From the NCBI GenBank assembly GCA_028707125.1, contig JAQTUX010000002.1, forward strand, positions 433,872 to 497,871: a DNA stretch of 64,000 nucleotides, read 5' to 3'. Of the stretch, positions 1 through 48,063 are shown in pieces. The stretch is from Candidatus Omnitrophota bacterium. Its GTDB lineage: Bacteria > Omnitrophota > Gorgyraeia > Gygaellales > JAQTUX01. The position numbers and the translations under genes were made by a program. Each line of letters starts with the position of its first letter. Position 1 is the stretch's first letter. The notes beneath the pieces are model-generated. The model saw only the letters and a program-made list of their open reading frames with translations, was not told the origin of the DNA and ran no database searches.

Positions 1-3000
1 TCTGGAAATTGTCAATTATATTGGTAACACTGCTTATATTGCTTTCCAGCTGGCTTAGCGCGTCTACGACGGATTGCATCTCCAGCACGTCTGCCTGATA
101 TCCGGTCTCTGTTATACCCGGGTCGGCTATGCCCAACCGCTGCCTGCGTTCCAGTTCGGTTTGAAGCGCTTCCCTCTTCTCTGCCAGGTCCTCAACCAGC
201 CGGTTCCAGGCCTGTAAAAGGCCGCTGCCGCCTGCCGCCAGCACCACCGGGTCTTCTTCCCAGGAGGCGATCTCAAGGCCAAGCGCGATACGCAACTGCA
301 TCTGAAGCCAGCCAATAGCGCCGATCGCCAGCGGATTGGTTTCAGTGTCGCCTTCCAGCCAGACCCTGTAGTTCTCGCGCACATACTGGAAGAAGATTTT
401 GTAGCGCATATCATCCCAAACGCGCTTGGCATCCTTTATGACCCTGATGCCGCCCATAACCCCCTGTATCCTTGCCGCGTGATACATAGGCACATACTTG
501 CTGAAGAACTCCTTCTGCATCCTGATATATTTGCCGTATTCGTTCTTGATCCTGGTGTATTCTGCCGCCTTTTTGTTCAACTCCTCAAACGAGGCAATGG
601 CCTTCTTGCGGGAAGCGGGGTCGTTGCCGTTCTTGAACTTATCCTCAATGATCTCCTTGACGATCGGTACCGACGGCGGGTTATCCAGATAGGTCTTGTT
701 GCCGTCCTTATCCATCAGCACCCAATTATGTGTCTCGGTCCCTTCGTCATAGGCGTATTCAACGATGGCCGGCAGCACAGCGGGCTTGCCGTCAATGAGC
801 CCGTCGGCGATAAAGCGCATGTCCCTGGTGATCACCGTGCCGGGCTTGAGCGTTATCTTCAGGCCGTTATCAAACTCAACTACCATCGCCTCCCTGATTA
901 TCTCCATATGGAGCTCCATCAACTCTTTGGCGTCGTTGATCAGGTAGATGCCGGGCAGTTCAGGGAATTGTTTGAAGGTAATGACTTTTGCCAGCGGCAC
1001 CTGCATTGTCTGGCCGCCCTTCAGGCGGGCGCCTTTGACCATAAGCGCATCGTAGTCCTCAGGTTTGACGGCCTTACCGCCCAGGCCGTTCCGCATCGCC
1101 CAGTCAATGCGCGCCATATAAAGGGAAGGTATGACCACACTCCCGCTGTAAGGATTGATGTCGGCGTCATATGCCTCGGCAAAGTTTCCGTCCGACTCGA
1201 TCTTATAGAAGCCGTTGTCATAGCGCAGGACGCTGCCTTTGGCCGCTACGCGCATGTCCCCGACGCCGCTATATGCGGTGATCTCCCCCGGAAGGACCTT
1301 GAGCTCGTTGTCCTTGTCATCCTTGTAGGTTAAGGTATCGTTGCCGTTGATCTCGCCCCCGAAATTAAGCATCGCGGTAAGGAAATCATTGAGCCGCTCA
1401 TAATCTATTATGCCGGGTATTATATAGTCACCCAAAGGCAGCCAGGCCTCGCCTGATGTGGTCTCTGTCTCAAAGCCGTACTTTTCTATGGATTCCTTTG
1501 TATTGGGGAAGAATATCCTTAAAGGAGCGGTGGTGGTAAAGCGCTTTTCATTATATTCGCCGTTTTCATTCTTAAGCGGAACATTTAAGTCCTCCCTGAC
1601 TAATCTGCCGATGACGCTCTCTTGCCCTGTTCTCTGATCTATCTCCCGCACCAGATGATAGCGGTAAGTCGGATCGTAATTCAACCTCGCGTCTATCAAT
1701 GACTGTCTCTGCCACTCTGAAGAGAATGGATAGGCGGCATAAGGGCCGGCCTTTTCCCGCGGCATGCCCTCAAATATATGCTTGATCCACTGGTTGGGAT
1801 CAGGCCCTTCGAAAATGAATAACTTATCGCTCTCCAGGTCATCTACTTCCTTAAACCACTTTATGTCTATGCGCGGGTTATACAGGACAGCGGACGTCCC
1901 TGCTTCAAAGATCTTAAATCCGGACGGCTTGACATTTAACTTATGGGGGACCATCACGCCGCCGTAGTGGCGCAGCTTTCCCATTACCGGCATATTCATT
2001 ATATGGGTAATGCTTGAGATGAGCGATATGCCGGAAAGCGGGTTGAACATACCTTTGGCGAATAAGCCGTATAAGATATTTATCACGTTTATGAAATCAT
2101 AGCCCTGGCCGCCCAGGCCGAATCCCAGGAATACGCTCTTTGCCACCCTCAACTGCGCCAGGGCGCCTGCTGCCTGCGTATCCAGGGTCACCATAAAGCT
2201 CACCGGGTCAAAGGTGATCTCCTCGCCGGCCAGGTATCTCTTGTAATTCTCAAGGTATCTCTTGATATTGTCGCGCGTCTCACTGATGCGCTGCTCAAGA
2301 TATGCCAGGGCGCGCGCCTTGCTTTCGTCAATGGCGAATTTGATCCTGAGTTCTCTGGGGTCTTCGGGCGCCTGCCTGCCTTCGTCATTGGCAATGGTCA
2401 GAGGGTTGTCTCCGGACTTCTCAAGGAGGTTCATCACTGTGGAGGCGAGGAAGACCGACGAATCCTCAGGCGTATAAACATCGCCCCAGGCAGGCACGCG
2501 CCTGTCTGTCTGCGTGGCAAAAGGAAGCGTGTCTTCGAAGGCCATCGCGTCCAGGCTCTTGCGGTATTTATCAACAAGGTCGTCCCTGCCTGCCTTCTTA
2601 TAGAACATCATCGCCTCGATCGTACGTTCGGGGCTGCCCAGGTTAAGCGCGTCTTTCTCTTTAAGCTCCTGCTCCAATTCCTTGATCTCATCCGTAAGCG
2701 CGCCTATCTTCCAGGCGATCTCATCCAGCTCTTCTTTTGTCTTCTTCTTGTCCTTCTGCTGCTCCTTGAGACCCTTGATCTGCCGTTCCTTGAAATCCAT
2801 CAGCTCTTTGCGCGACTTGTTATATGAATCAAACAGCCGCTTTCTCTCCTGACGTCCGGCAAACGCGATCAGCGTGACATCTGCCTCTTTGACCCCCTCT
2901 GCCCTGGTCTTGTATTTCGTGCCCACGCTTGCCTCTGTCTCCAATGCCTGCGCGAGCTCCTCATAGGTCAAGCCGATACCTTTCAATTCTTCTCTGGTCA

Positions 3001-6000
3001 TTGCCAGCGCCGGTATTGCCTGGGCATCGGAATAGAATGTCTTGTCTATCTCGTTACGCGTAATGCCGCCGAAGAACCTCTTCTCCTTTTTATCCGCGAA
3101 CAATCCCATTGCCGCGATCACCTGCCGGGCCTTTATCCCAAAGCTGACCCCTGTCTTATCCTCGTATGCCTCGTAGGCCTTTAACAAGGCGATGGCGCGG
3201 CCGTTCTCCTCAGTCGAGACACCGCCTATCAGGCGCGGCTCTATGAAATTGCCCGCCTTATCCATACGCAGGTCATAGCCCTGCTGCAAGAGCACCGGTT
3301 CCCGCGACATATCTACGCCGCCCAATTCCTCTGCCGTAAACATATCCTTTAGATCGCTCAGGCGCAGCGGCCGGCTCATAACGGCGTTGGTGATCTCCTG
3401 CGCCAAGCCAAGGAACGCGTTATCGCCGGTAGCAATGGTATAGGCGAGCATGCTCAGCGCCAGCGCCGAATCCACGCCTGTCCTGGTCCTGTATATCTCT
3501 ATCCTGCCTGTCTGGGCGTTGAAAGCCTCCGGTATACCTCTGAAATACTGTTTCCTGTCTGTCTTTACGTAATTATTCTCGTAGAACTTAAGATAGAAGG
3601 AAAGCACTGCCTTTGCCTCATCCTTCCTGTCTTTATTGAGCAGCCACATCACCAGCACTGCCTGGTCAAAGGTAAACGCCCTGTTTGCCTCAAGCGCAAA
3701 ACCCGGATGGGACACCCACAGCCCTGTCTTTTCCAGCTTGATGATACCGGCCTCGATCGCCTTTATGCTCTCCTCATATACCTCTCCGGTCTCTTTCCAT
3801 ATGGTTGCGGCACCCGCGTGTGACTGGGCGTTCTTGAATGAGACATCCAGCCACTCCTTGAGCGACTTCCAGTCATCCATTACCTCGCGATAGCGTGCCC
3901 TGAAATTCTTCTCAACCATACCGAAATCCATCGCTGTCAGGTCAGCCGCATTCTCAACAATAGCGTTTATGTCCGTATATACCCTGCCCACAAACGCCTC
4001 TTTCCGGGCAGCGTTAAGATCTTCTGACAGCTGCGCGGCGACAAACAGGTCAAGTATCTCTTTATATTTGGCGATAATGCCGTCCCTTCTCTGCGTGATC
4101 AAGCTTAATTCCTGCCTCTCCTGGGCGCCTATACCCTTATCGTTCTTCTTGTCATCAAGCGCCTTCTTGGCCTTTTCAAGCACGGATGGGGCAGGGAGCA
4201 GGGCCTTTAATTCTTTTACCTTGTTTTCAACGGCCTTCTCTATACCGTCTTTGCCCAGGCGCGCCTGAATGTCCTTGTAATTGTCTGACGGCTGCCACAA
4301 ATCATCCGGCCCTATAGCCCTGGCTGCCAGATCGCCTCTTGCCTGCAGTTCTTTCTTGGCATCTTCTACGTTCGCCTTCATCTCATCAATCTTCGATGCT
4401 TCAACCTGCAGGGGCTGGACCTTTTGTTTAGAAACCGCCTCTTTGGATGCCTTAACTAAATAATCCTCTGGATCAACTTCTCTGCCGTTGATGCCGCCTT
4501 TTCTGATCTCAAAATGTAAATGGGTCTGAGGTACATTATAGGCATTGCCTGTTCTGCCCACTGCCCCTAAGACGTCTGTCTGTGTAACCTGCTGTCCTTT
4601 CTTCACCTTAATTGAATCTAAATGAGCGTAAAGCGTATAGTTTTTGTCCTTGTGTTTAATTATCACTGTCTTGCCATAGTCCGTCTTTGAGCCGGCAAAG
4701 ACGACCTCTCCTTCTAACGCAGGATGCACGTCCGTGCCTTTTTCGGCCTCTATATCAATGCCTTGATGTTTATGGTTGTTCCTGCTGCTTACTCTATAAT
4801 CGCCGAATTCACTTACAATGTCTCCTGCAACCGGCCATGTGTAAATATTATTTTCTACTCTCCTGTCTCTCGCTATGGCGCTGAATACGATCAAATGAAG
4901 CGGTATCCTCCATGTCCCACCCGAAATCTGTTTTGTCCGCGGCGCCAGGGCATCATTCAACTCCTCTATTCTGGCGTTAATGCCGGTTGATATGCGCTTT
5001 AATACCGCCTGGTGCGTCTGCCTGCTCCACTCACCGGTCTGCTCAAGGCCCAGGCCCTTCTGCAGCGCCTTGACCTGAGAAGACAAGAGCTCGGTGTAAA
5101 TGGCGTTTGTCTCCTCATTCAGATATTCGCCGTATAACCTGATGCCGTCCAAGCCGTATTCCTTTTCTGAAGAAGAAACCCTCTTGTTCTCTAACCATTT
5201 ACCCACGATCTCCCGTATGCCGATCACCCTCTGGTCTTTCTTATTGCCGTCCACCTTGAATATATCTGAGTCATCGCCCTGCCATTTCAACTCTTCCAGC
5301 CCGGCCTTCTCTTGTTCCAGCACAAGCAGGTCGTTAAGTTTCTTCAGCTTATCCTCGGCCGCTTTTATGCCGGCATCGTTTTTCTGGGAATCGTATTCTA
5401 ATTTAAGTGAATTGATCTCAAGGCGGGCTTGGATCACCCTCTCTCTTAAGTCCTTAAATTCGATGCCGGCCCTATGCAGCAAGGCCTGCTCGGCAAACAG
5501 CCCCTTCCTCTCATCCATCAATGTATTGGCCCTGCCTTCATAAACGGCGGTCAACTCCTCCCGCAGGTTCTTCCAGTCATCTTCGTCAAGGTTCTCGGTC
5601 AGCTTATCGCGGCCGTGTATCCTGTAGAAGATATTAAGCGCCAGCACGGGGGATTTATCTACGGGATAACCCGCTTCCTTAAGTAAGCTCATCAATATAC
5701 TATCGCTGTCGGATGAGGAAGCGCCGTATTTACTGAAATCAATGGCCAGATCATCAAGCGTAATGGCCTCAAGTTCTGCCTTCTTAAGTCCTGCCTTAAT
5801 GCCCTTTATCTCCTCATCGATCGCCTTTATCAGGCCTGCCCTGTCCTGCGCTGACCTGGCGTCAACTTTTTGTCTATCCTCAATTTCCTCTTCAAGGCCG
5901 GCGATCTCTTTCCTGATTTCAAGCAGCCGCAGATTCTCTCCGGCGGCCCTGTTCTCTTTTACCTCTAACGCCTCTTTCTCTTTATTTAAGGCCTCTATCT

Positions 6001-9000
6001 TCTCTTTGTTGATGCCCTGTTTCAACTGCGCCATCTCTTCATCCAGCGCCTCAACCTGCTCGTCGTCTTTGTTCGCTGCCTTAATAAGGGCGTCCCTGTT
6101 TATCTCAAGCAGCCTGATGTCCTCTTCCGCGGTCCTGTATTCATTCGCCTCCAATGCTGCCTTTTCCGCGGCAACTTCCCTCTCTGCCTTTATCCTGCCT
6201 GACTCTGCCTCAATAGCACTCCACTTCTGGACTAACCTTCTGTACGCGCTGTCTTCGCTGCCCTGCGGATCATTCCAATATTTCCACAGGCCGTTGGCAA
6301 CCTCGCGCGCCGCTGAGCGCTCCTTGTAAGTAGGAAGCTCTGATATGGCCTCTTCCTGGCGGCCGCGCGCCTGCTTCTCTAACTCTGAATACCAATATTC
6401 GCCCTGCTGCCTCTCCTGCTCCGCCTTTTGCCTCTCGCTCAGGTCCTCTTTCCCGCCCAGGGTATAATGGATGAACTGCGGTATAGACGCTCCGGCTATG
6501 GTCTGCGGTAGAAGAACGTGCCCCAGGCCGATGGCGCCCGGAGGAACAATGAGTTCTCCGTCCTCGCTGAACTGTCCCGCGCCTTCCAGGCCGTTTGCCA
6601 ACGCCATTGCCTGCTTACCGCCGTAGTCCTTGAACAGAGGATGGTTGCCCATTGCCTGGCCGGCGTCAATGATCAATCCGATCTCAGCCGAGATCAACCA
6701 CATATGCCACAGGCCGATGTAGAAATCCTTGCCCGCCCGCACCAGAGCCATATAATATCCGTTACGATCCTTTGTCTCTATGGCGGACAGGTCGAATAAC
6801 TTCCTGATGCCCTTGTCCCCATAGAATGCCGCGGTGAGGATTATTAACGCGGGCGCGGCAACAACGGTCAAGGCCGCGGCTATGTCAAATCCGGCAAACA
6901 ACACACCCTTCCTGACGGCGCCGGCCGGTATTGACCCGCCTCTTTCTTCATATATCTTAAGGTAACTGTTACGCAGCTGCGGTATTTTCTTCAGGTTAAG
7001 GGAGATGACTATAATCGCCAGCCGGAACATCTCTTCCAGCGTATACTGCAAATGCAGCCCTGTCAGCAAGCGCTTCATCAGCATATTGCCGCCGACTATT
7101 GAAGGCGGATTGGCGATATTCCAGCCGAACAATGCCGCCAGGGGCCCGGCAACATAATCGCCGGCCAGGGCAAGCACAGCCCTGCCGATAATAAACCTGA
7201 CAATTCCGGAAGCAATAGGAAATGCCGCTTTAGCGGTTGTCCTGATGTTCTTCAGGGCATACACGGCCCGGCCTGCCAGGTCTGTGTTGGACACAGCGCC
7301 TACAGCCAGGTATTTGTCCTCCACGAATTCGGCAAACTGAATATTGGTCCAGATATAGTCAAAGAAGAAGTTCCAGAGCACCGATGCCAGATACGGCGAG
7401 ATAACGCCGAATATGGCGCCATAGAGGATGCCCGGAGCGCCTAAATAAGTCCCGCCTACGACAGCGCCGATCGCCGCCAGGGCCTTTATGTAAGCGCGGC
7501 GGTTAAGCACATCGTACGCGAAACTTAAGAAATCCTTCTTAAGCGGCCTATTATATTCTTTTGATTTTAAGAATCTCTGCCAGTCATCTTTGGTGGCGTT
7601 CATCAAGGCAATGATCAGGCAGCCGGAGAATAACAGTTTGGCGGGCTTGCCGCGGGAAAGGCGGCGGATGTCCTGCGCCAACTTGCCGATACCTAACAAT
7701 AACACTATGGAGGGGAACACGTAAGGAAATACACCGGCGATATAGGCGAGAACGGGAATGTTTGAATGAAGTATTGCTGCCGGAAGCGCTGCTTTTGTGG
7801 AGCCGGCGAACAACTGCAGGCCGTAAGAAAGGACGGAGATGCTTGTGATCAAACCAAATGACTCTTTGAGGAATTTGCGCGCCTGAGAAAGGTATCCCCT
7901 GTCAGGGCCCCTGATCCCGCCGTGCTCCACGCGCTGCTGCGTGACGCGCGCTGCCTGCGACAAGAACATTACAGAAGTATAAACGAAAGGAATGGATAAC
8001 AGAAATGCCGCGATACCCACGATTGTCAGAGGATTGGCAAAGGCGTAAAATGCCATTGCCGCCACCGGAATCAGGGCTACAACGCTCATAGCCATTGAAC
8101 CGCCGGCAGTAGCGCTGCCGGGAATGCGCTCAGAAGCGGAGCTGGAGGCCTGCTCCCGGCGCTCAGCATTTACAATACCCAGATCTTTGAATACATCGGC
8201 GGGGATAGTCGGATAGATTGCGCTGCCGCACAATATCCTGAGGAATCTTTCCTTATCCTCTGACGAGATATTCCCGGGAGCGCCTTTATAAAAATCAGGG
8301 CCCTTGATTATGGCGGAATGCAATATATCCTGAGCAGCATAGCACACAACAACATAGAAGCTCTTTACGGCTTTGTTCTGAGGAGACGCCGTATTACGTA
8401 TCATATCCCAGGACGCTTTGACGGCGCACTTCAACAAGGCCTTGCCCGGCTTACTGATCTTCTGCGTATCCTCTGCTTTAAGGTTTGCTTTGACCCAACC
8501 GTTCATAATAAACATATCTAAAAATTCGGAAAATGCCTGCACGGCAAGCGTTAAGTCATTGGGCATCACATAAATGCTGCCGCCTCGCAGCAGAAGCCAG
8601 ACGGCTGAGGCCTTCAACTCCTCGGGAAGACGGCCCTCCCTTATCTCTTGAGGAATCTGTTTCTTCTCTTTATATGCCTCCATATATTGATTGCGGAGAC
8701 GCGCGTACTCTGTGCCTATTGTGATCTCTCTATCGCCGCTCTTGACCCGCTTTGTTGACCTTATAAGACGCTCCTCAACCCAGCTGTAAAATTTGTCCTT
8801 ATCCCTGTTTTTATATAACAGATCCTTCTTTTCCCTTAGCCACGCATTCTCCCAGAGATACTGCTTTACCAGGTTATCTATGTAAGCCGGGCTTAAACCG
8901 GATGACAGTATCGCGGTATTTACCAATTCCCTGACCGTCTTTGAAATCCGAGGGCTCTTCTGCACCGCAATTTCAACGTCTAACATACCATTCAAAAATT

Positions 9001-12000
9001 CAGGAAGAATATGAAATTCGGAATCCGCCCTGTCTTTCTTCTCCCGCCTCAATCCCTCTATATAAACATTTACCACTTTGTCTATATAAAATACCTTTTC
9101 AATAATATTATAGAGATTTGTGGTCTTTAATTCCTTTGACTTGGCATGTATCGCCTGTTTTTGCGCCTCACCTTCAAGGCCGCTTAATTCACACCAGTCC
9201 TTGATCAAGCTGACAAGCACCTTAGATGTGATCCTCGCGACCAATTCCTGTTTATTAAGCGTCCTCTTAGCGGTAAGGAACCCGAATAATCCTCCGCCGT
9301 TGCCGTTCCCTGAAGAGCTTGCCTTTGGATTATTTTCCGCTAACGGCGGGGCAATGCTTATGTTAACCCTGGGCTGATCTTTGGTGCCGTTTTGTATATC
9401 TATATGGATCTGCCGCAGTACATTTAATATCGCGGTTGCCAGATCAACTGTCTGAGAAAACACATCCATGCCGTCCAGGTCCTCAACAATGACCTCTTCC
9501 GGCATATCCAGCTTCCCGGAGGGAGTCAGGAAGGAAAATTCCAATCTGCCTCCGTTGTTTACGGCGGCCCTGGGTACCACTATACCTGCCTTGCCGGACG
9601 CGAAAAGCTCGCGCGCGCCTATGTGATCAAATCCGGGGAACATCGCTTCTATTTGCGCCGCGTGCGATGCTAATAACGGATGCAGCGTTACGCACGAATG
9701 GTCTAAATGCGGATTGTCTCCTATGGTTACCAGTATGGCATCGTTAAAATAATGCTGCATCTGATGTGACTCATAAAGCGCGTCATTTACAAAGGCGAGC
9801 GAGGCCAATTTAGTAATGGTATATTTCTCCTTCTGGTCTATCCTGATCAACGCTTCTGATATGGGATTGCCTTCCCTCCACCTGTTCCTTACCCTTACAT
9901 ACCTGAAACACTCCACCCCGTTGTCTCCCGCGAACATCACACCCATAACGACGAAGTCAAAATCATCAACGGTAACATCAAGCTGCCCTAATGAATGGGC
10001 CAAACCGCTGAATCCCTGGCTTTGCCTGAATGCCTGCAGCAACTCGTCTGTCGTATTCTCTTCCCGGATATTGACTACCGCGGTCCTGTCCGTATTAAGG
10101 CCGACAAAGTGCCTGCCGTTCCTTAAGCTTATAATTAACTCTTTCAGATCTGCTACCTTGGGGCTGTCATTGCTGTCTACCAAAGTATTATCTAAGTCAA
10201 TAGAGAATATCACCGGGATCTGAATGCCCTCCAGGATGCTATTTATCTGTTCGCGCATATCCTTCTGTGATGCCATACCAAGACGCGTGAGAAGCCAATT
10301 AGTAACAGATGAGGAAGATGATTCTCCCTGTCTCTCCTTATAGGCCTGTGTGTATTCCTCCCTGTCCTTTTCGCGTAAGCCGACATACAAGGCAAGCAGG
10401 CCAACCCCGAAATCCGCCCCCTCTGCGTGGTCCATAAACCACTCTGAGATCAGCGTCAGCGCGCGCTCTGTTTCTAAGAGCGCCGGCCCCTGGTCATTCT
10501 TGCCTAAGGCCTGCAGCTTATTCCTGATGACGGCCTTAAGATAAGCCGGCAGGCCCAGCAACGCGCCTTTTTTGAACGACTCCGCGCCTATACTGTGGTC
10601 AACGCCGAATGTCTCAAAATCTATCCGCTCATTCTCCCCGTGGAATTTCATCTTAAATAACACCCAACGTATAAAGTTTACATATGATTCTATCGCGGGG
10701 CCGGTAATGCCGCTGTTAAGAGGCCTGCCGTTCTCTAAAGTAACTATTTCCACCGGGCTATTATCTAATAATTGCTCTAAAGAAGGCATTGCCCTGCGGA
10801 CCGCGTATCTAATGGGATATGTGGTGGTTAAAATACTGAAATGCCTTCCTGCCAGTTCTCCCTCCTGAATCTTCATTTCCTTCTTAAGGGCATAAGACAG
10901 CGCGATCTCGTCGCCTTCCGGCACGTTATGGCCTCTATCGCGAAGGATACCCTCCAGCTTCATTATTTTATTGCGTATTATATCCACTGCGGAAGACGCC
11001 ACGGTCACCCGGTTCCTGCCGTTTTCCTTTGAAGCATACAATGCCTCTTTGTCTGCCTTATACTCTAATGTTGCCCGGTCATTGCCATGTTCCGGAACAG
11101 CGGCAACTCCCAGGCTTATAGTAACGTTAAGGGCCTCGCCTTTATATTCTATCTTGAGGTTCTCAACCGCCGCCCTTATTCTCTCGGCAACTATTTCCGC
11201 GCCTTTGGCATCAGTTTCGGGCAGTATTACCGCCATCTCTTCGCCGCCGTAACGCGCTACGAAATCATTGGGACGTACGGCATTCTGAATAGCCGCGGCC
11301 ACCGCCTTCAGGACTTCATCCCCTGCCTTATGGCCGTGTGTATCATTAAATCTCTTGAAATGGTCTATATCGATCATTATGAGTCCAACAAAATAACCTA
11401 CGCCACGGTGAACGGCGCGTTTGAGCTGCTTATCCAGCTCGGAGTCATACGCCCTCCTATTATTCAGGCCTGTCAAGGCGTCTGTGGATACCAGCCTTTC
11501 CAAGCGTTTTATCTTGTTATTAAGCGCCAAGTAAGTCGCGGCTGCTCCCATGACTATGCCGACTGCCACACCAACCACTACCGCCGAAGAACTTGGCTTT
11601 TCCGGCACAGCCACGCCTGATACGGAGTTTACCTGATCAGGCGTGGTCTGTGTGGTTGCCGTCGATGCGGTAGACAGGGATATGGTTGTTGCGGCTGAGC
11701 TGGACCTTGCCGCGGATGGTGTCTGCGTCTGTGCCTCCGACCTCTTCCCAGGATTCTGCTGTGCCGTTACGGGCGTAGACGCGGCCCGCGCCATCGTCAA
11801 ACACAAGGAAGATGCGGGTCTTTCCGCTGGGTTCCTTTCCCGCTCCGAATACTGTCCTGTCCTTGCTGAAGATGACGAGGTGGTCAAACTGGAACTCTGC
11901 GAAGTTGATCCTGCACATTTTAATGCACCTCCTTCAATTAAATAGCGGGCGCGCTCGGTGGGGGTCAGGCCCCGGAGGTATCGGGCCACCAAAGCAACGC

Positions 12001-15000
12001 CCGCTATTATATTTGCCGCTGTAATCACGAGCCCAGCCACGGGTAGGGTGATCCCTGGCGGCGAACTTGTTCTTTCTAATAATTCAAAGGCATTCCTGGC
12101 CTTTTCTATCCTCTGCTCATCGGTCAATCCTTCTTCTTGCGCCGCGGTCAGATTTACCATTACCGGAGAGACCTCTTCAATGACATGCGGCCTGGTAAAG
12201 TAGGCGTCATCCTGCGCGCCCAGGTAATTTCTGCACCATGCCTGCGTGACCATAGTTATGCGAACAGCATTGATGTACGGAAAGCGCTTATACACGAAAT
12301 CAGTTGCCCTGTAAATATCTTCGGAATTAAGAGGACCGTAGCCCAAATGCGTTGTGCCTTTAAGGCTAGGGTGGGTATGCGCCATTTCCAGGAGGTCTAC
12401 GAACTGCACGCCTTGTTTCTCATACAATTCGGCCAACCACTGCATTATATAATAAACAGGGATCGCGTTTCTTCCGCCTTCAATGAATCTGGTATGTGTC
12501 GCGCCCCCATATACAGCCGTGATCATCGCGACTTCGGTATTCTGGGTATTCCTCCTCTTGTTGCACTCTTTATGAAGAGCCCACAAGCGGACTGCCCTGC
12601 CAACCTCTACCTCTGCCGGTATGATCCTTATAACTGAACGCTGATGAAGTATAAGCTCATCTACATCTGCTCTGCTTATAATAGCTTCTCCGTCAAACGT
12701 AGTGGATTTCCCGTCTTTTCTGATTAATATGGGGTCAAATTCCGGAACTTCGTTATGAGGGACTGTTTTGAACAGCGAACCTGCGTATACACGAATTCCA
12801 CCTGCTGTTTGCTCTGTATTCTGCTCAACAGCGACAGGTGGACTGGTTTCGTAGCGCTCTATTACCGCGGAACTCGCAACAAGAACAGCGTCAGCCGCCC
12901 TTTGTAACTGTTCAACCGGCGGCAGGATCGGCGCTATATAGGCCTTTCCGGTGGTCGCACTGCTGGAACCACTGTTTCCGTTACCGGAACCTGAACTTAC
13001 ACTCTGGGCGCCTTGGCCTCTGCCTGTATTTTCCGCAGGCAGGCCTGATTCATTCGCGTTCTTGCTGTCTGCTACTGCACTTCCTGCACCTCTACGATCA
13101 ATATGTTTGCCCGCTTCTGGCTCGACGACCTGGCTTTGGGCAAAGCCAGCCGCCCCGCTTATCCCGCCTGCTCCGGTAGCGCTTGAGCTTCCGCTCAACA
13201 TGGCGAACATCTGGTCAAGCGGAATACCCATACCCACCGTGGCTGGCATGGGAAGTATTATCGGGCTCTGTAAGATTGTCTGACTTGCGGCCGAACCGGC
13301 TGTATTAGAAGGACTGTTACCTATATTATTGCCGCCTGTGGGCGCCTGAGGCATACCCAACGGTTGCTGCGAGCTGGCAGGCGTGCCTGTTGGTCCATCC
13401 TTGGGCGCCTGTTGGCTATTCTTTCTGGCTTTATCCCTGCCCGCAGAGAAAAATGACTTAAGCATGTACTGAGAACGGACCAGTATATCTGTATTCCCCT
13501 CAACTGTATACCGATACGGATGATCACCTTCAAGCGCAACCAGGGCATTACCTTCCGGAATCTTAAATTCACCTACGATTTCTCCTCCCTTGTACCAATT
13601 CACACCCATATGGCCGACTATTTCCGCGGCTTCATTTGTTCTCAAAACACGGAATTCTCCGCTGTATACTGATGCCCCCTTAGGATATACATCAACGACC
13701 AACGTCTCATGGCCTGTTCCCGGAGTTACATACAGGTACCAATGCGCGTCATTATTTACCAACTCTACTTCCCATGCCGGGTCAAATATCTTTAATAACT
13801 GGCCGAATACAGTGTTGCGGGTCATGCAGGCAGCGCCATCCGGTAAATACATATTAATATGCCCGTATAATGATTCCACGACCTTCTCTAACGCGTCGAT
13901 CCTGGTTATCGCGGTAATATCTTTTTGTTTCTTCAGGTTACTCAACTCACTTTCCGCGATGGCAAGATCATCTTCGGCATGAATGTCTTTAAATTGACTT
14001 ATCGCCTTATCATATAAATCTATCGCGCCAATTATGTCCCCTCTTTCTGCCAACACCCTGGCCTTCTCAACTTTTGCTTCTGCCGTTGAGCTGGAAACAG
14101 GGCCTACGGGCGTAAGGGCGATGCTGCCGTCCTGCTGAAGCGCTATCCTGAAGAAATGCTTTAAATCAGCGGTGCTGGCAAGGGCCTCCGGCGGTTGAAG
14201 CGCGCCGTTAACTATCGCCCCTATTTTCAGCTCTTCTCTGAGTACCAGGGGCTGCCCCTTATAATCGTCTATCGGGGTGCCGACAGGTATTATTTGCACC
14301 GGCCTGATATTCCACGGTTGGATATCCATCTCGCCGTTATTATCCAGGGTTACCTTAAATTCATTGTCTTCTTTATCAGCGGCCATTACCTCTTTTGTCA
14401 CTGATTTTATGCTGCCGTCCTTGCCCTTCAATATATTGATCTCGCCCTGCAGGATAAGCGGATGCTCATCGTCGCTGCTGATATTCTCTCCCTGCTTGCG
14501 GGTTATCTTTAAAGGCATAAATACAGTATGGCCGTCTTTGCCTGTTTCGCTTACAATCCAGGGATCACCCTCATTATCTACAAGGTCTATGGAATCAACG
14601 CCTGTCTTTCTCTCAAAACCGTAAGGAAGATATCCTCCGGCAGCGGGCCTTAACACCTTGCCGTCGTCCAGTTTTATCTCTGCAAGTATTGTTGCCTTAT
14701 CATCGTCAAGGCACAACCAGCCGTTTATCGCCGCTGCCTGCTGCCTGGCCTTTTTCTCTATCTGCGGCTCGGTCAATTTATCCTTATTCTGCTTAGCGTC
14801 ATTAACGGCGTTCAGCGCCTCCCGCGCCATTTCAACGCTCACCACGCCCTTATTAGCCGCGATCTTATCCATCATTTCATCTATTGCGGCTATGCCTGTC
14901 CTGGCTGCCGCGGGAAGGCCTTTAACCGTCGCCGCGATGCCCAATTTCCCAAACCTGCGCATATTCTGCCACAATAAAGGATTGATCCTCAATATACCCG

Positions 15001-18000
15001 CGTCTAACTCTATTATCTGTTCGGCGCCCTCTGCCAGGAACTCAACCCCCGCGGGCAACTGAGCGCCGCTTATGCCTAATTCCTTGAACAGGGCGGGGAT
15101 CAACAACTGCGTCCCTTTCTCAAAGCCCCTGGCCGTAATATCCTTACCGTCAACCTTGAGCGGCTGTTCAGCGATAACAGCGGTGGCCCTTGATATGGCC
15201 CTGCCGTCCAGGAACTGGAAGCCGTCCTCTGTCACCATTATCTGCATGCCCACGCGGAAACCCTCTGCTCCGGGTATTGAGAGGAACGGCTGGAGAGATA
15301 CTATGTCTCCGTTGCGGACGATGCCGGATAATTCAACCCTGTCGTCATAATGACCCATTGGGAAGCTGTGCCTTTCCTCGCTGCCGAATACCTCATGTAT
15401 CTTCTGCCAGAATCCGTAGCGGCTGCCCAGGCCGCGCCTGGAGGCGTTAAGTATCCTTCTCTCCTCCGCCTCCAACCCTTCTAATGCCGCCTCTTTTTCT
15501 TCGTCGCTGAGGCCCAACAGAGGTATTGATTTCTTCTTAAGCCTGATCTGCACCAACGCCTCGCCGCCTGCCATACCGGCAGCAGCCAGGCCCGAAAGGT
15601 CTTCCCAGGTAGGCGTAAAGGGATTCCTGAGATTATCGAGCACTGCCCAGAGCGCGTCATACTGCCTCAAATGCGCGTCTTTCTGAGTATGCGTGAGCCC
15701 GCTCAAACTCTCCTCAAAGCTGTCTCTGTTACCATTACTGTAATCTATCTCTTTAAGCTGTAGTTTAGCGCCTTCGCCCTTGACCACCGCGAAGACATAG
15801 GACTGGTCAACGCGCTCGCCGCCCACATCAACAACCGCGTCTAATCTAAAGGTATCGCCCGCCCTCAAATACCTGTCCGGGCCCTGGTAACCCATGATCG
15901 AGGTATTCCTTCCGGAAGATGCCGATGTATCCCGCTGCACGACTATCGCGGGGGCATCCTCGGCAGCGCTGCTGGAAGAAATCCCGTAGACCTCGTTTAC
16001 AAAGGCGCCTCTTAATTGCGCCCCGGTCATATTATTGTCTTCTGCGAACACGGCAACGACGCTATCCTTTGCCGCGTTGGATACCTCGTATGCCCGGCCT
16101 TGCAGGTCAAGCTGCTCCTGTGTCTTGAACTTAAGGCGGGATAATTCATAGTTGTGGGTAATGCCTATTGCCTGGTCGGCGGAAAGGCCGGCAACCGTCT
16201 CAAACACATTGGTGCCGGGGTCCTGCTTTGCCCTGTGCATCAAGCGCATAAAGTAAAGCGAGATCCTGTCATCTATGCCTGTCATAAGTTCGGACGCCAT
16301 ATTAATATAATCGGCCGCGGAAATGGCGCTTAACGCCTCGGTTATGACTTCGTTAGGATTATGCTCTTTCAGGTCAAGTGAATCAAGGTCCCAATCTTCA
16401 GCAGGATTGCCCATTCTTTGTTCTAACGCGCTAAGGAAAGGACGCGTGTAAGGATTGTTCCTCAAGGCATCCACGCGCGCCTTGTGCAGCTTCCTGGCGT
16501 AATCTACATCGGTATCACCCGGCATTCTGGTGACAGCGGCCTGTCCCAGCACGTTTTTAACTATGGAGTGGTCAAGTTCGTGAATAACATCGTGGATGCC
16601 TGTGGGATTCAACGAGATAGAGACGCTGCCGCCATCGTATCGCCTGGAGAACAGGTCTTGTCCGGCGTCTATCTTTATCGGCCTGGCCTCGTTCGGCTGG
16701 TTCTGCGCGGTTACCATACGGCCCTCATCCCAGAGCGTGCCGTATTCCACAAGCTCATAGGACTGCGTATCCATAAGCTGCCCGGCAGCCGTTGCGCCGC
16801 CGCCTAAATGCTGCGTAAGATAAGTCAGGGCAATGTTTCGGCCGTCTTTATTTACGTTCAGATTCAAAACCGGGATAAGCGCGTTATATACGCTCTTTGT
16901 GTCGTATTCCGCGCTGTTCTCCACGTTTCTTTTTACCTCAGCCAGCTTAACTTCGGCGTCATCCGCGCTCATACCTGTGCCTATAAATTGCTGTTTATAT
17001 GCATCGTGATTGCTTGCCAGGAAATCTAATGCCATCCTGCGGCTGATATATCCCTTATTCCTGCCCAGCAGTTCAAACTCCGCCTTCTGGCTGTAATGAT
17101 GCAGGGCGATCTCATCCAGGCCAACCATCTTCTTCAGCCCCCTGATATTCGTGAGCTGCTTTTCCCTCTTCTTAAGCTCCTTTAGTTTGTCCTTCCTGGT
17201 CTGGGCGTCCATCGCCGAGTTCTTAGCGATCTTGTCCCTTTCCTTAGCGAGCTGCTTCAATTCCACGCTGAACTCAGCGTCCTTAAACTCGCCATCTTCT
17301 TTCTGCAACTGTTCCCTTAATATGCCTCTGAGCTCTCCTGCCTTGCCCAGGCCCAGCCGCGATAAGCTGTACCAGTTCAACTGCAAGAGGCCTTTTCTAA
17401 AGAGACCCATATCCTGCCTGTTCACGCCGGCCAGCTCTTCTTCAAGCGCGCGCACGCCCATAACGCGCCTTGCCTCTGTTTCAAACCACTGCATCCTCTG
17501 CAAATGGCGGCTCTGGCCGCTGGTGAGGTATTGCGCGTAAGAATGCAGCATCTTTGCCTCTGCGTTCTCAAGCTGAGGACGCAAGGCGCGCGCTAGGGCC
17601 GACCTCCAGGTCACTTCATCCTGATAAAGCGAGCCGCCCGGAAGGGTATAGGCCGCTAAATTCCCCACCTCCTGCATAACGCTTCTGCTGAATGTCTCAT
17701 CCCCTGCCAGGCACTCTTCAACAATCGCCTGCGTATTTACCTTAAAAGGCAGGATGTGCTCATCCGCAACGTCTGAATTATACGCGCTGAAACCGTCATT
17801 GCTGATAATGATGACTTTTCTGCCGGTCATCGCCCCTGCTATCATCCTTGCCGCTCCGTCTTCGCCTTTAAGTTTCGCGGCGACAAACAGATTGGCTGCC
17901 TCCGCCCTTATGGGGTTGGTTTCCGTAGAGGCGCGCGCCTGTATCTCGGCGAGTTTCGCGTGCCTGTCTTCAGGCGCCGCTGCCTGATACTCTGCCTCCA

Positions 18001-21000
18001 GCGGCACCATTTCCGCCTGCGCGCCAAAGAACTCCCGCCATTTATTCTCGCTGCCTACTTCAAAAGTGCGGATATAGCCGTTCTCATCCACAATGATCTC
18101 GGTGCCCGCGGGCAGCCCCTCATCGGCGATTGCCTGGAGGGCGTAACGGTCGTTCTTCCAACTATCCCAATTACCGCCGGTCAGGCAATCCTCTGCTGCC
18201 GTCTTCTGAGAATCCATAGAGCCGCTGAAGCTCACGCCTATTACCCTGCTGTTCTGCCGCGACAAGCTCCTCTTCAGCGCCCAGGCGCTCTTGTAAGTAT
18301 TGCCGATGCCCCCTTCAGGGGTAAGGATCTCCTCTAATAACTGGACGTACTGCGCGGGCAAAGGCAGGAAATTAAGCAGCACGATATCTATTGCCGGCTC
18401 ATGCAAGCTCTCCTGCAGGGTGCCGTTGACAACCAGGGTGCCTAACCTCGCTCCCAAAAGCCGCGTCCTCTCCATAAAGCTCAAGGATGACTTGTTTGAC
18501 TGCTCAAAGACCTTCTTAAACGGCGTTTCAAACACCTCCAGGCCCTCTGCCAGCGCCTGGTATTTCGCCCCCATATTGGCGAACTTGATATTGGGGAAGG
18601 AATGGCGCGCCAGAGGGAACAGCAGATTCAGGGCGACGGCGAATGATACGTTGGACTTTTCCAGGTTCTCCCACTGATCTTTTAGAGAAGCATTCTCCAA
18701 TAATTCAGCAAAAGAACCGATCTTTGCCTTGCCGTCCTTCTCGCCGTATAATCCCACTGAATACGACCTGGTGAACATCTCCGCGGCGAATTTGACTATG
18801 TCTGTAAGCTTGTTAAATGAAGGATACCTGTCCAGTATGTCGCTGTAGACCTCTTTGGTGGCCTTGATGCCAAGCAGAGCAGCGTCTCTTTGCGTGATCC
18901 AGAACTGGCCTAATGTCTGAGACAGCAGGCCCTTGGCAAAATTGGTATATTGGGAGGGTATCATAATTTCCTGTGCCACGGCGCCGGTGGCTGTGATGGC
19001 GATATACAACGGCGCGATCACGCTGAGGATATTCCAGGCGCTTCTGGCGGTCACGTCATAGAACAGGCCCTTTGTGGCTGCCAGCCCTGTTCCGCCTATG
19101 CGCTGGGACAAAGAAGGTTTATTAATATCATATCTGCCGAAGGGATGGGCCAGCAGGCTCATCGCCCCCAACGCGGCAATAATCCCGCCGGTTACGCGCA
19201 GCGCCTCTGCCGGAGCCCTGCCCTTTAAGCTCAGGGCGTCAACTACCTTAAGGGCGGTTGTGTTTTCAATACCCAGGCCTTTCAGGTCGGCGCTGTCAAA
19301 GCTGCCCATAGCATACAACAGGCCGCCCGCTCCTATTAATCCCAGATCGCTGAACACCGGATGCTCAACGCCCCTTCTATACCAGCTGCTAAGGCTCTGC
19401 CGCGTGCCCTCCCACATACCTGACACGCCTTCTCTGATCGCGCCTGACTGTACCCGCTCGCCTCTGGCATTTGTATAGAACGCCTTTTCCGGACGGCCCT
19501 TCCTGTACGTCTCCCAGGCGCGGGCGCCGAATCTTGTAACGCTCTTAACCAGCGCGCCTTCAATAAGGGCAGTGGTCAAATCAGCCGGCATACCTTTATA
19601 TTCGCTGAACAGATGTGGCGTTGAGGCGTCTTTCCAGTTAAATCTTTCGGGATGGCGGCTGATCCAATTCTCGGTAAGCGACACCGCGGGGTCAAACACC
19701 GCTTTTTTGGCTCCGTAGACCAGGGCCGCGACTGATACGGTATCTATGGCAAAAGAAGCGATCCTGGGAGTATGCCTGGCTAACATTCCGGCTATGGCGC
19801 CTGCTGCGGCATAAGCAGCCAGATCCAGCGGCTCTGTAATATCATTATTATAAAAACCGTAACCCAGCCCGGCAGCCGCGCCCAACAAACCATAGGTAAG
19901 AGGATAACTTATACCCTTGGATGTATCCCAGGCCCTTTCTGTCCTGATAAAGCTCTCGCCGAAGACCCTGCTCAAACCTGACTTGGGATTGGAAACGACG
20001 GGGCTGAAGCGGATATTCCTGGCTAAAAGCATTCCGCCCAGGCCGCCGATCATCAGGCCGGCGTTGGCAACATAATTGGCGAAGACCGAATCTCCCTGTT
20101 CGCCGCTATGATACAACGCTAAACCGGTTGCCATCATCGCCGCCGGCGTAAGCACTGTGCGCTCTGCCGCGGCCTGGACAATATTGCTCTGCGCTATGGC
20201 GCGCGCAAGATTGGAATTGGCCGCCTTAAAGTATCCTGCCCCGGCAAAATTCCAGATCGCGGCAGCGCCGATGCTGGCAGAGGCCACCTTATCCAGGCCG
20301 TAGGCAACGTAGGCCGACTGGTTTTTGATCGCGCCCCACTTCTGGCTCCAGTCCTCTCCCTGCATAGGCCAGGCAGGGATGCCGATGCTCAAGGCCGTAT
20401 TCAGGCGCGTAAGGTTGGCCGCCTGATTGTAGACGCCGGCGGCAATGTAACCCCACTGCTGCGCGGCGGATAACTCACTGAATAACATGTTGCTGCCGTC
20501 TGCCATCCTCATCAGCCAATCGGTCTTCGTCTTACCGCTGAACAGCGGTCTACTGTAAGTCATTCCCAGAGGAGTATATTCAATGAAGACATTTCTCTCA
20601 GCCAGCAATCTTTCCGGCGCGTTAGTTGCTTTGGTTATCTGCCTGCCGGCATACCTGAAGCCAAGAACGCCCAAGGTGAAGCTGCCTGCCAGACGACCCA
20701 TGTTCGCGGGATTGGCCTTTATCTCTTCGCCTATGCCGGCGGCGATCTGAGGCATTATCGTAGAAAGGGTTAATGCCTGCTTCAGGGTCTCTAAAGGATT
20801 GGAAAACGCGTAAATGGTGTAGCTGTGGCTTGCCGCCTGTAATGCAAGATCAAGCGCTCCCGCGACATAGCCGGGGATGAAGGCGTAATACCCGAATTTT
20901 TCATTCATCGCCTGGTCAAACGCCTTGCGCTCTTTCAGTTTAACCGCGTCTACCCTGCCCTCAAGATTCTCGCCAAAACCCATCCTGCCTGCCGAGGCGA

Positions 21001-40093: not shown

Positions 40094-40452
40094 TCCTGCT
40101 CCTCTTGTCCGTCTTCCGGTTGTGTCGCGCTTACGTATTCTCCGTGCAACCTGTCGTAATCCTCAACCTCTGTAAATTTGTTGCTATGCATTAGTTCCGA
40201 AGATGCTTCATCCGGCCCGTCTACGTTTACAGCGTTGCCATATAACCCACTTAGAACTTCGCTGCTGATCGGTTCAGAGGCCCCAGGGTCGGTTGTCACT
40301 TCATACTGCCAGCCGAAACCGATCGCGTCTGCGGCAGTCCGCCACCTTCCCTGCATAGCGCGCTTAAGGTAGACCTGCATGGTCATGACCGCCGCGACCA
40401 TCACGATCACCAACACGCAATACTCAATCGCACTGATACCTTGGTTTTTCAT
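40090..40452 (-). CDS. Flp/TadE-type class III prepilin-like protein (MKNQG/ISAIEY…)
   Basis: Carries the G/XXXXEY prepilin-peptidase motif followed by a hydrophobic helix and 'MQVYLKRAMQGR', which is shared with the paralog array. Confidence 0.65.
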   Translation of the reverse strand: MKNQGISAIEYCVLVIVMVAAVMTMQVYLKRAMQGRWRTAADAIGFGWQYEVTTDPGASEPISSEVLSGLYGNAVNVDGPDEASSELMHSNKFTEVEDYDRLHGEYVSATQPEDGQEEQE

Positions 40453-45178: not shown

Positions 45179-45188
45179 CTTTCCTTCC

Positions 45189-45650: not shown

Positions 45651-45692
45651 AGCTGAACACTCCCTGTGAAGTTAAAACTGCCATAAAACACT

Positions 45693-46169: not shown

Positions 46170-46193
46170 TTCTTCTATCACCTCCTTACTATT
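46008..46193. repeat. 186-bp perfect direct repeat, copy 1 (pilin paralog 5' end + RBS)
   Basis: Identical to 46526-46710 by eye ('cccggtgaatactgctcgcccatatcatcggaagcgcttctcag…cctccttactatt'). Confidence 0.8.
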
Positions 46194-46686: not shown

Positions 46687-46710
46687 TTCTTCTATCACCT
46701 CCTTACTATT
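46526..46710. repeat. 186-bp perfect direct repeat, copy 2
   Basis: See copy 1. Confidence 0.8.
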
Positions 46711-48061: not shown

Positions 48062-48063
48062 CG

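Follow-up and report, generated by a model that had tools for sequence, protein, structure and literature searches.

Giant proteins of Omnitrophota have been proposed for prey adhesion and prey-wall digestion, and the domain evidence gathered to date is mainly carbohydrate-related, most of each protein being without annotation. The locus considered here raises the question of which cell wall, that of the producer or that of another cell, would be the substrate of an M23/LytM peptidase domain lying about 11,200 residues into such a protein. The window, that is, the whole stretch of 64,000 nucleotides that was analysed, belongs to an Omnitrophota genome: five proteins neighbouring the giant one are identical to entries of an NCBI Candidatus Omnitrophota MAG and carry locus tags PHR44_.

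The giant gene and its neighbourhood

The minus strand runs without stop from 38341 to 2 in a single frame of 12,780 codons (ORF scan); residues are numbered here with p1 as the codon preceding the Met. The architecture of the protein and the adjoining operon are as follows:

2..38338, minus strand: giant ORF, at least 12,779 aa from the ATG at 38338, with the C-terminus past the left edge of the window
37517..38338, minus strand: N-terminal module, a signal peptide or anchor (p10-32) followed by a C39-like Cys/His peptidase (PF03412, E 5e-9)
11009..11488, minus strand: GGDEF diguanylate-cyclase domain (p8952-9111; PF00990, E 7.5e-45)
6668..8119, minus strand: 5-9 candidate TM helices (p10075-10558; Kyte-Doolittle and Hessa-scale scans), the final membrane passage before the M23 domain
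5282..6424, minus strand: charged, heptad-like helical stalk of coiled-coil type (p10640-11020), between the last TM cluster and M23
4322..4429, minus strand: charged helix after M23 (p11305-11340; AF2 helix at local residues 276-295, heptad scan)
2..4321, minus strand: orphan region of 1,440 aa 3' of M23, without predicted TM helix
38347..56127, minus strand, the same as the giant gene: Tad/T2SS-like operon upstream of it (Pfam, pilin N-termini, NCBI names)

The initial annotation had described a protein of more than 12,000 aa with membrane-spanning and coiled-coil regions, and this description holds: the length follows from the stop-free frame, several transmembrane clusters were found along the protein by the two hydrophobicity scans, and charged heptad-like stretches flank M23. 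In the upstream one, the stalk, the E/K/Q/R/L/A fraction is 0.55-0.60, the heptad scan is positive and there is a weak match to SMC_prok_B (E 3.9e-4). Self-blastp revealed no internal repeats, and the Gly content of the protein is 9.2%. The C39-like module is 35-40% identical to five Omnitrophota C39 proteins, with Cys p132 and His p213/p218 invariant; its region gave no match when compared with the PDB by sequence. The GGDEF domain has GGEEM together with an RxxD I-site and comes immediately after a TM helix (p8920-8938); it should be on the cytoplasmic side. By the positive-inside rule and hydrophobicity, the number of candidate TM helices from GGDEF to M23 is 5-9, and since their parity is ambiguous, the periplasmic or external location of M23 is one that we infer. 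The orphan region matched nothing in a 5.8-billion-protein database, the PDB, Pfam (E<=5), NCBIfam or PHROGs, and a single-sequence AF2 model of p11500-12080 is of low confidence (pLDDT 41.9). Separate expression of M23 from an internal promoter was considered and rejected, since neither a sigma-70-like site on the coding strand nor a terminator was found.

The ATG of the giant gene lies 8 nt past the stop of a TadC-like gene, the last one of the operon, and from this gene order we propose that the giant protein is co-transcribed with the Tad/T2SS-like pilus-secretin apparatus. Besides at least 8 pilin-like ORFs with class-III signal peptides and an uncharacterised protein of 934 aa, the operon encodes a PPIase, RcpC/CpaB, a secretin with TonB_C, a ParA/CpaE-CpaF (T2SSE) fusion ATPase, DUF192 and two T2SSF (TadB/C-like) proteins; TPR, GT2 and NHL genes are also among the neighbours in the window. 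Giant genes beside Tad/T2SS operons have already been described in Omnitrophota (West-Roberts et al. 2023, bioRxiv 10.1101/2023.11.21.568195; Seymour et al. 2023, PMC10066038), and the literature, in which a giant protein is 3-fold up in attached cells, connects the giant proteins of Omnitrophota, as well as Tad complexes, with predation or parasitism and with wall degradation.

The protein under study resembles the known Omnitrophota giant proteins in its signal peptide and N-terminal C39 peptidase (or S8 in West-Roberts 2023), its GGDEF domain, many TM helices and few annotated domains, and in the adjoining T2SS/Tad-like locus with class-III-signal pilins; it is also like the PF03412 architecture cluster of bioRxiv 10.64898/2026.06.07.730766. 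The 'Archaeovorin' set of West-Roberts 2023 (n=46) has genes of more than 90 kb, compared with 38.3 kb in our window, and small PilZ genes immediately 3', where the corresponding region lies outside the window. Unlike the 'Archaeovorins', our protein has no glycosyltransferase, methyltransferase, glycoside hydrolase, NUDIX or SecA domains in its 12,780 in-window residues, all of which were tiled with Pfam (E<=0.01), while the C-terminal part beyond the window could differ; the same tiling of these residues gave no dockerin and no TSP3 repeats. The main texts of West-Roberts 2023, Seymour 2023 and bioRxiv 10.64898/2026.06.07.730766 make no mention of an M23 domain in Omnitrophota giant proteins, and literature searches turned up no other report of one. 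Being absent from these published domain lists, M23 is evidently not generally needed to make a giant protein.

The M23 domain, its active site and its relatives

The domain and the residues discussed below are located as follows:

4445..4834, minus strand: M23/LytM peptidase domain (p11170-11299), its structural extent set by AF2 pLDDT >90
4754..4768, minus strand: HxxxD motif HQGID (p11192-11196), aligning with LytM His210 and Asp214
4622..4624, minus strand: His p11240 in YAHLD, the second catalytic His, aligning with LytM His260
4514..4522, minus strand: HxH motif in HLHFE, with catalytic His p11274 and Zn-ligand His p11276, aligning with LytM His291 and His293
5006..5125, minus strand: possible PG_binding_1-like segment (p11073-11112; PF01471, E 3.6e-4 to 4.5e-4)
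4871..4906, minus strand: short hydrophobic stretch, IPLHLIVFSAIA, abutting the M23 core on its upstream side

Judged from the sequence, the match to the M23 family is far above chance level. Pfam Peptidase_M23 (PF01551) is matched over profile positions 2-96 of 96 (p11191-11291, window 4469-4771) with E 1e-29 and a score of 103 bits, the gathering cut-off being 28.7. In the PDB, phmmer found 39 M23 chains at E<=1e-3, with DipM (7qrl, 9e-22) ranking first. In the predicted structure the core has a pLDDT of ~96-98, and Foldseek superposes it on 4bh5, 2b13, 6smk and 9gy1 with TMt (the target-normalised TM-score) 0.78-0.86 and rmsd ~2.0-2.7 A, EnvC, LytM and EnpA domains being among the matches. 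The initial annotation had thus rightly recognised a canonical M23/LytM domain inside the giant protein; its span of 4450-4900 is essentially that of the structural domain, the PF01551 search that it proposed returned the strong match given above, and the beta-sheet pattern that it had noted around the motifs corresponds to a confident predicted fold that matches solved LytM domains.

The M23 family is defined by an H(x)nD motif that provides two Zn ligands, and roles are described for the second catalytic His and for an oxyanion-stabilising Tyr in loop 1, LytM Tyr204 (PMC9662197); the HxH motif comprises a catalytic His and the third Zn ligand, the second catalytic His lying some 30 residues before it. 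Both zinc-binding motifs of the initial annotation, HQGID and HLHFE, are present in frame, and the catalytic His and Asp align residue for residue with a LytM reference sequence that we validated against 2b44/1qwy: all 5 active-site residues of LytM (His210, Asp214, His260, His291, His293) are kept. The predicted Zn ligands of the first motif are His p11192 (codon 4766-4768) and Asp p11196 (codon 4754-4756), and the codons of His p11274 and His p11276 are 4520-4522 and 4514-4516. Tyr204 has no unambiguous counterpart: it aligns with a Ser, and the gapped loop contains a Tyr (GDYRV) a few residues upstream. The domain is apparently catalytically competent, and since the five residues are retained, it should not be a degenerate LytM factor. 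Such degenerate forms do occur among its relatives: the active-site residues are missing in DipM, the best PDB match, by the phmmer alignment, and the corresponding positions are degenerate in an NlpD-like protein of Omnitrophota (P0006) and in an EnvC-like protein (P0038).

The nearest relatives of the domain are small housekeeping proteins of the NlpD/DipM/EnvC/MepM type, with at most 55% identity. A search of 5.8 billion proteins with the M23 segment returned small M23 proteins only, none above 48% identity, and exhaustive phmmer on 1.84 billion representatives (query p10480-11600) matched through the M23 core only, with the flanks unmatched and proteins with 2-5 tandem M23 domains in the top ranks. 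The closest homologues include a FlgJ-like protein that combines PF10135 and PF01551 (P0004, 43% identity), and the same Rod-binding and M23 architecture is found in P0135. PHROG tape-measure, internal-protein and endolysin families also match, the matches being confined to the M23 core. The best match of all (P0001) was considered as a possible fragment of a giant gene and rejected, as it is a standalone protein of 174 aa in a housekeeping context. Protein-pattern scans with the last 400 in-window residues (genome and metagenome contigs) and with the M23 domain (genome contigs) gave no match, and no orthologue of the M23-bearing segment was found in protein or contig databases. It should be noted that a neighbouring gene is present in only two short Logan contigs and that the giant protein was never among its own matches; because the searched databases seem not to contain it, the failure to find giant M23 homologues is weak evidence that none exist.

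Around the domain, a PG_binding_1 segment is possible about 80 aa upstream: its sequence match is statistically suggestive at 21 bits, under the cut-off of 23, and AF2 gives it no support, rendering it as long helices with pLDDT 58-66. The pairing of PG_binding_1 with M23 occurs elsewhere, in the protein P0097. No second wall-active domain was found near M23 in Pfam (E<=5), NCBIfam, PHROGs or the PDB, and Pfam gave no Rod-binding, SLT or CHAP partner. The block encoding M23 is a local GC3 low, with 69 GC3 codons observed against 88 expected and 3.2% of windows equally low, which is compatible with capture of a standalone M23 gene. The hydrophobic stretch IPLHLIVFSAIA stands at the beginning of this dip and, as standalone M23 homologues consist of a signal peptide and then M23, it may be the relic signal peptide of the captured gene.

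The wall on which the domain would act

The initial annotation had weighed a target wall against that of the producer, and these stay the two leading readings. The one that we favour, at slightly below an even chance, is that the enzyme acts on the wall of a bacterium attached as host or prey. The M23 module, maybe paired with a small peptidoglycan-binding helix bundle, would ride the long charged stalk, both in a presumably extracytoplasmic segment of a membrane-rooted giant protein. His p11192, Asp p11196 and His p11276 would coordinate Zn2+, and water activated by His p11274 and His p11240 would allow the enzyme to cut bacterial peptidoglycan at a peptide bond of its cross-links or stem peptides; to judge by the relatives, this bond would most probably be D-Ala-mDAP, cut in DD-endopeptidase fashion. 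Since the enzyme is tethered, cutting would be local at the contact point and not diffusible. M23 would then serve as the payload domain in a protein for attack or attachment on contact, in a way comparable to the M23 of phage tape-measure and ejection proteins.

Several observations touch on this proposal. The published link of Omnitrophota to predation and parasitism, together with the Tad-adjacent position of the giant gene, speaks for a host or prey target, and the silence of the published domain lists on M23 and the low GC3 speak for payload status. Against such a target, a tethered M23 has to cross its own wall and outer membrane, or needs proteolytic release, to reach another cell; its nearest relatives are housekeeping periplasmic LytM proteins (DipM, NlpD, EnvC, ActS, FlgJ-like) and not secreted bacteriolytic M23 enzymes; and V. 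archaeovorus, the one cultured relative, attacks an archaeon without peptidoglycan. The ambiguous parity of the TM helices, the ambiguous alignment of Tyr204 and the lack of orthologues in the searched databases also count against the proposal.

A close rival is remodelling of the producer's own wall, which we consider a serious possibility though on balance doubtful. Here an active M23 would stay periplasmic on its stalk and open local gaps in the sacculus, letting the extracytoplasmic parts of the giant protein, the Tad-like pilus-secretin machine or both pass through the peptidoglycan, much as FlgJ-type Rod-binding-M23 proteins, PrgK or VirB1 do at other envelope-spanning machines. Because M23 is tethered to a polytopic membrane protein, the producer's wall is its nearest substrate, and a complete peptidoglycan synthesis pathway is retained in Omnitrophota according to the literature. 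The housekeeping character of the closest relatives, with the two Rod-binding and M23 proteins among them, argues in the same direction, as does the operon shared with a secretin machine; moreover, the combination of coiled coil and LytM recalls EnvC, and EnvC-FtsX (8tzl, 6tpi) and the LytM domain of PrgK (8s0u) are among the fold matches. This rival is weakened by the fact that M23 is not reported as recurrent in Omnitrophota giant proteins, by the lack of a recognisable autoinhibitory or regulatory partner and by the block composition, which hints at recent capture of an accessory module.

The other explanations carry little weight. Among M23 enzymes, BLP and LasA also cleave proteins. These two M23A enzymes are classed by their broad specificity (PMC9662197), and one may think of a domain that cleaves Gly-rich protein bonds instead of peptidoglycan, aiding the C39 peptidase in cutting a giant polyprotein or attacking host surface proteins; West-Roberts et al. 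2023 propose that giant proteins are cleaved post-translationally by embedded peptidases (bioRxiv 10.1101/2023.11.21.568195), and the Gly content is in line with this idea. It is nevertheless improbable, as the domain groups with M23B LytM-type peptidoglycan enzymes and not with M23A, a PG_binding_1-like signal adjoins it and cleavage sites are not in evidence. Still less credit can be given to a non-catalytic module that binds or activates amidases or other autolysins in the manner of DipM, EnvC and NlpD: the best sequence and fold matches are indeed LytM domains of DipM and EnvC, and coiled coils flank the domain as in EnvC, but the Zn-binding and catalytic residues lost in DipM, P0006 and P0038 are all kept here (5/5). 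Equally far-fetched is a recently captured M23 fragment that is inert, being cytoplasmic or otherwise without substrate, and contributes nothing. The low GC3, the relic-like hydrophobic stretch and the ambiguous helix parity would suit such a fragment, whereas the nearly complete profile match, the intact active site and the confident fold argue for purifying selection, and the block is in frame and undisrupted within a 38-kb ORF.

Returning to the host or prey wall, its elements can be joined in a more specific reading, which taken as a whole we hold to be unlikely: a membrane-rooted, c-di-GMP-linked and Tad-coupled attack tether whose M23 stems from a captured standalone lipoprotein gene and is taken through the outer membrane of the producer to cut the peptidoglycan of a bacterium attached as host. 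If this were true, the protein would be a cellular counterpart to the M23 of phage tape-measure and ejection proteins, some giant-gene Omnitrophota would parasitise bacteria rather than archaea, and payload enzyme domains would be swapped among giant genes to suit host wall chemistry. Whichever of the two walls is concerned, the identity of M23 as an enzyme is secure, its active site is intact and its class of substrate, the peptide cross-links of bacterial peptidoglycan, is known. This argues that, in this Omnitrophota lineage at least, the wall acted on is bacterial, whether its own or a host's, and not an archaeal envelope. A fragment of ~150-300 aa, which is expressible, offers a direct handle on the wall-degradation hypothesis, and the GC3 island hints at how giant genes acquire modules. 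The gain is incremental and usable, and current views are not overturned.

Comparison with other M23 systems

The Gram-negative LytM proteins (MEROPS M23B) share Pfam family and fold with our domain and are the closest to it in sequence. Domain-level matches in NCBIfam range from DipM (95 bits) down to MepM (48 bits), and no NCBIfam whole-protein cut-off is reached. HxxxD, the middle His and HxH are kept as in MepM and ShyA, which together with Csd3 and Pgp3 are the active DD-endopeptidases of this group, unlike in the degenerate activators DipM, NlpD, EnvC and ActS. These relatives are proteins of 170-520 aa with LysM, coiled-coil or signal-peptide N-termini, whereas here the domain is internal, beginning ~11,170 residues into the chain.

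In phage tape-measure, internal and ejection proteins (PHROGs 4070, 10030, 167, 1067) M23 is likewise set within a long, largely helical, extended protein that crosses the envelope, and two phage ejection proteins with embedded M23, 9k2v (cyanophage A4 pre-ejectosome) and 9m7n (Gp16), are among the PDB matches. Our protein differs from them in its chromosomal Tad-like operon context, with no phage structural genes among the neighbours in the window, and in being membrane-rooted with TM clusters and ~10x longer. FlgJ-type Rod-binding and M23 proteins and the LytM domain of the conjugation protein PrgK use M23 for the local gap of an envelope-spanning structure; unlike in the FlgJ type, no Rod-binding, SLT or CHAP partner was detected here, and the adjoining machine is a Tad-like pilus with secretin, for which, to our knowledge, no dedicated M23 has been described.

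Lysostaphin, LytM, LasA and the beta-lytic protease of Lysobacter have the catalytic motifs and the fold in common with our domain, which is 25-32% identical to LytM and lysostaphin. Secreted M23 enzymes, with which producers lyse other bacteria (PMC9662197), are small, free and often equipped with SH3b targeting domains, while the one described here is tethered and nearer to the Gram-negative housekeeping LytM domains. Among the Omnitrophota giant proteins themselves, this M23 domain is not a new kind of system: it fits, and slightly sharpens, the published idea of wall attack.

The M23 domain and its active site

The giant protein is encoded by a single stop-free frame of 12,780 codons on the minus strand (38341 to 2, with an ATG at 38338 and open at the left window edge), in agreement with the more than 12,000 aa proposed in the initial annotation. 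Codon p starts at window position 38341-3(p-1), the methionine being p2. The two zinc-binding signatures previously read as those of an M23/LytM peptidoglycan endopeptidase were found in frame (HQGID at p11192-11196 and HLHFE at p11274-11278), as was a YAHLD motif at p11238-11242. The Pfam profile Peptidase_M23 (PF01551) matched p11191-11291 with an E-value of 1e-29 (103 bits, against a gathering score of 28.7) over its whole length, positions 2-96 of 96, and phmmer against PDB sequences returned 39 M23 chains, including DipM, ShyA, Csd3, EnvC, LytM, lysostaphin and zoocin A. From an alignment of 83 sequences, AlphaFold2 modelled p11040-11340 with a pLDDT of about 96-98 over p11170-11299; superposition of this model on LytM domains of known structure gave target-normalised TM-scores of 0.78-0.86, at an rmsd of about 2-2.7 A. 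Since the confident fold spans p11170-11299, the domain was delimited as follows, the interval first proposed (4450-4900) being essentially right:

Window 4445-4834 (p11170-11299), minus strand: M23 domain, from the confident AlphaFold2 core and superposition

The top single matches of the domain in PDB and NCBIfam are DipM, EnvC and NlpD. All three are activators without catalytic function, their metal-binding and catalytic residues having been lost, as can be seen in the DipM alignment; such losses also occur in two proteins retrieved by database search, the Omnitrophota NlpD-like P0006 and the EnvC-like P0038. We aligned the domain with LytM, whose catalytic-domain reference sequence had been checked against 2b44/1qwy, and the expected metal-binding and catalytic residues were all in place: His210, Asp214, His260, His291 and His293 of LytM correspond to identical residues in the giant protein (five of five retained). 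This intact active site contradicts the reading of the domain as a non-catalytic LytM factor, which we consider very unlikely. The loop-1 tyrosine (LytM Tyr204), a secondary residue, could not be given a confident counterpart in the alignment. The accepted criteria for the M23 family are H(x)nD, HxH and an upstream His (PMC9662197); since all three are present, the domain should bind zinc and is predicted to be an active enzyme.

The best matches in a database of 5.8 billion proteins are small (172-523 aa), have M23 either by itself or next to LysM, coiled-coil or Rod-binding domains, and align over the M23 core alone with at most 48% identity; the top one, 174 aa long, is a standalone protein surrounded by housekeeping genes. 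When the domain and its surroundings (1,121 residues) were used as query in an exhaustive phmmer search, 89,915 matches were returned; the best 150 are similar only within p11150-11310, and the leading matches carry several tandem M23 domains per protein. No orthologue of the arrangement was found in the databases searched. The giant protein itself was never returned as a match, suggesting that giant proteins are probably under-represented in these databases.

Architecture of the giant protein and its operon

Pfam tiling of the whole in-window giant protein gave only four matches.

Pfam matches in the giant protein
p177-255, minus strand: Peptidase_C39 (E 5e-9)
p8952-9111 (window 11009-11488), minus strand: GGDEF (E 7.5e-45)
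p11073-11112, minus strand: PG_binding_1, sub-threshold (E about 4e-4, 21 bits against a cut-off of 23)
p11191-11291, minus strand: Peptidase_M23 (E 1e-29)

The PG_binding_1 signal was not reproduced structurally in the AlphaFold2 model of p11040-11340. The protein begins with a signal peptide or anchor, and for the N-terminal 270 aa or so (window 37517-38338, p2-275; signal peptide and C39-like module) six homologues were matched, all four with a named source being from Omnitrophota; the five C39-like homologues aligned are 35-40% identical, with invariant Cys p132 and His p213/p218. Only this C39-like module, the M23 domain and the GGDEF domain have detectable homologues. In the GGDEF domain the signature reads GGEEM instead of GGEEF, an RxxD I-site (RPND) precedes it by five residues, and a TM helix whose exit is positively charged lies immediately N-terminal to the domain.

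Candidates were located for both the membrane-spanning and the coiled-coil regions ascribed to the protein in the initial annotation. Hydrophobicity scans gave candidate TM helices at p6380, p6438, p8768 and p8920 and a cluster at p10075-10558, with 5-9 candidates in the interval from GGDEF to M23 and either parity possible; topology prediction is equally unreliable for Omnitrophota giant proteins (West-Roberts et al.). Between the cluster and the M23 domain, p10640-11020 is a highly charged, heptad-like helical stalk with a weak SMC match, and a shorter charged helix lies C-terminal to the domain. Self blastp detected no internal repeats across the 12,780 in-window residues, of which 19 are cysteines, none past p10241. 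From p11340 to the window edge (1,441 residues) no match was found in the 5.8 billion proteins, Pfam, NCBIfam, PHROGs or PDB, and AF2, run on a single sequence from the segment downstream of M23, reached a pLDDT of only 41.9.

The genes upstream of the giant gene are tightly packed on the same strand, 8 nt separating the stop of a TadC-like gene from the giant ATG.

Genes of the Tad/T2SS-like operon upstream of the giant gene
Upstream operon, minus strand: PPIase
Upstream operon, minus strand: RcpC/CpaB
Window 52701-54311, minus strand: secretin with C-terminal TonB_C domain
Window 50532-52691, minus strand: fusion of ParA/CpaE-like (AAA_31/CbiA) protein and CpaF-type T2SSE ATPase, 719 aa
Upstream operon, minus strand: DUF192
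Window 48467-50065, minus strand: transposase-like ORF, 532 aa (weak HTH_Tnp_Tc3_2 and HTH_32 matches)
Window 40090-40452 and 43257-48175, minus strand: family of at least eight pilin-like paralogues whose N-termini resemble class-III signal peptides
Upstream operon, minus strand: unknown protein, 934 aa
Upstream operon, minus strand: two T2SSF (TadB/C-like) proteins

The pilin-like ORFs share near-identical N-termini (...GQ[ST]xxE[FY]A[VI]L...MQT[YF][VI]KR...), and these small paralogues are the predicted pilin family of the locus. Five neighbouring proteins are present in NCBI by exact sequence, including MDD4910615.1, MDD4910618.1, MDD4910631.1 and MDD4910632.1 (locus tags PHR44_); the entries belong to a 510,045-bp contig of a Candidatus Omnitrophota/Omnitrophica MAG. 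G+C is lower (0.44) around the transposase-like ORF. Within window 61561-63993, a tRNA-Glu(CTC) (61561-61637) is adjoined by a 763-aa NHL/beta-propeller repeat protein, and G+C in this region drops to 0.38, compared with about 0.52 over the rest of the window.

Origin of the M23 domain and the wall it would cut

The block encoding the M23 domain (window 4442-4894, p11150-11300) has a third-position GC of 0.44-0.50 against 0.62-0.72 in its flanks, with 69 GC3 codons where 88 are expected from the amino-acid content; 3.2% of windows of equal size are as low. Just upstream of it lies a 12-aa hydrophobic stretch, IPLHLIVFSAIA (window 4871-4906), with the look of a relic signal peptide. The dip and this stretch in combination suggest, without proving it, that a standalone M23 gene, perhaps one for a lipoprotein, was captured into the giant gene. 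A much stronger synonymous GC3 dip occurs at window 12410-14023 (p8107-8644; 255 GC3 codons where 332 are expected, z -7.2), a region without a recognisable domain that may be a further inserted module.

The giant membrane protein contains a confident LytM fold with an intact M23 active site, and its operon, in an Omnitrophota genome, also encodes a Tad-like machine that includes a secretin. The domain would be placed extracytoplasmically, where it would bind zinc and cut peptidoglycan peptide bonds, most likely cross-links of the D-Ala-mDAP type, since its relatives are Gram-negative LytM proteins; being tethered on a long helical stalk, it should act locally. The M23 observation is real, and its initial interpretation, lysis or remodelling of a cell wall, is supported.

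We give slightly less than an even chance to our leading choice of target, an attached bacterial host or prey cell whose wall would be cut. This reading is favoured by the published biology of Omnitrophota giant proteins, by the sporadic, payload-like nature of the M23 domain, by the possibly foreign composition of its block and by the precedent of phage tape-measure and ejection proteins, in which M23 is likewise embedded in long envelope-crossing proteins. A close rival, which we hold possible without thinking it probable, is that the producer opens its own sacculus locally to let the giant protein or the pilus machine through: an inner-membrane tether holds the enzyme, its closest relatives are housekeeping and FlgJ-like proteins, and EnvC-like and PrgK-like architectures occur among the fold matches. 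That the domain is a protein-directed or self-processing protease seems to us improbable, and that it is an inert relic, highly improbable. Both wall-cutting readings, host or prey and own, imply bacterial peptidoglycan, which deserves attention because the cultured relative preys on an archaeon. The main value of the M23 domain is as an experimentally tractable handle on the wall-degradation hypothesis for giant proteins.

Relation to published Omnitrophota giant proteins

Archaeovorins, by their authors' definition, consistently contain glycosyltransferase, methyltransferase, glycoside hydrolase, NUDIX and SecA-like domains. Pfam tiling found none of these in the 12,780 visible residues; we therefore class the protein with the Omnitrophota giant proteins that have a C39 N-terminus rather than with demonstrated Archaeovorins. 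An M23/LytM domain is not mentioned in the main texts consulted, in one supplement or in the literature retrieved by further searches. [quoted passage not shown] The giant protein studied here has the same arrangement of domains and neighbouring genes, and our finding is an additional domain within an already described system, the giant envelope proteins of Omnitrophota that have been linked to wall degradation.
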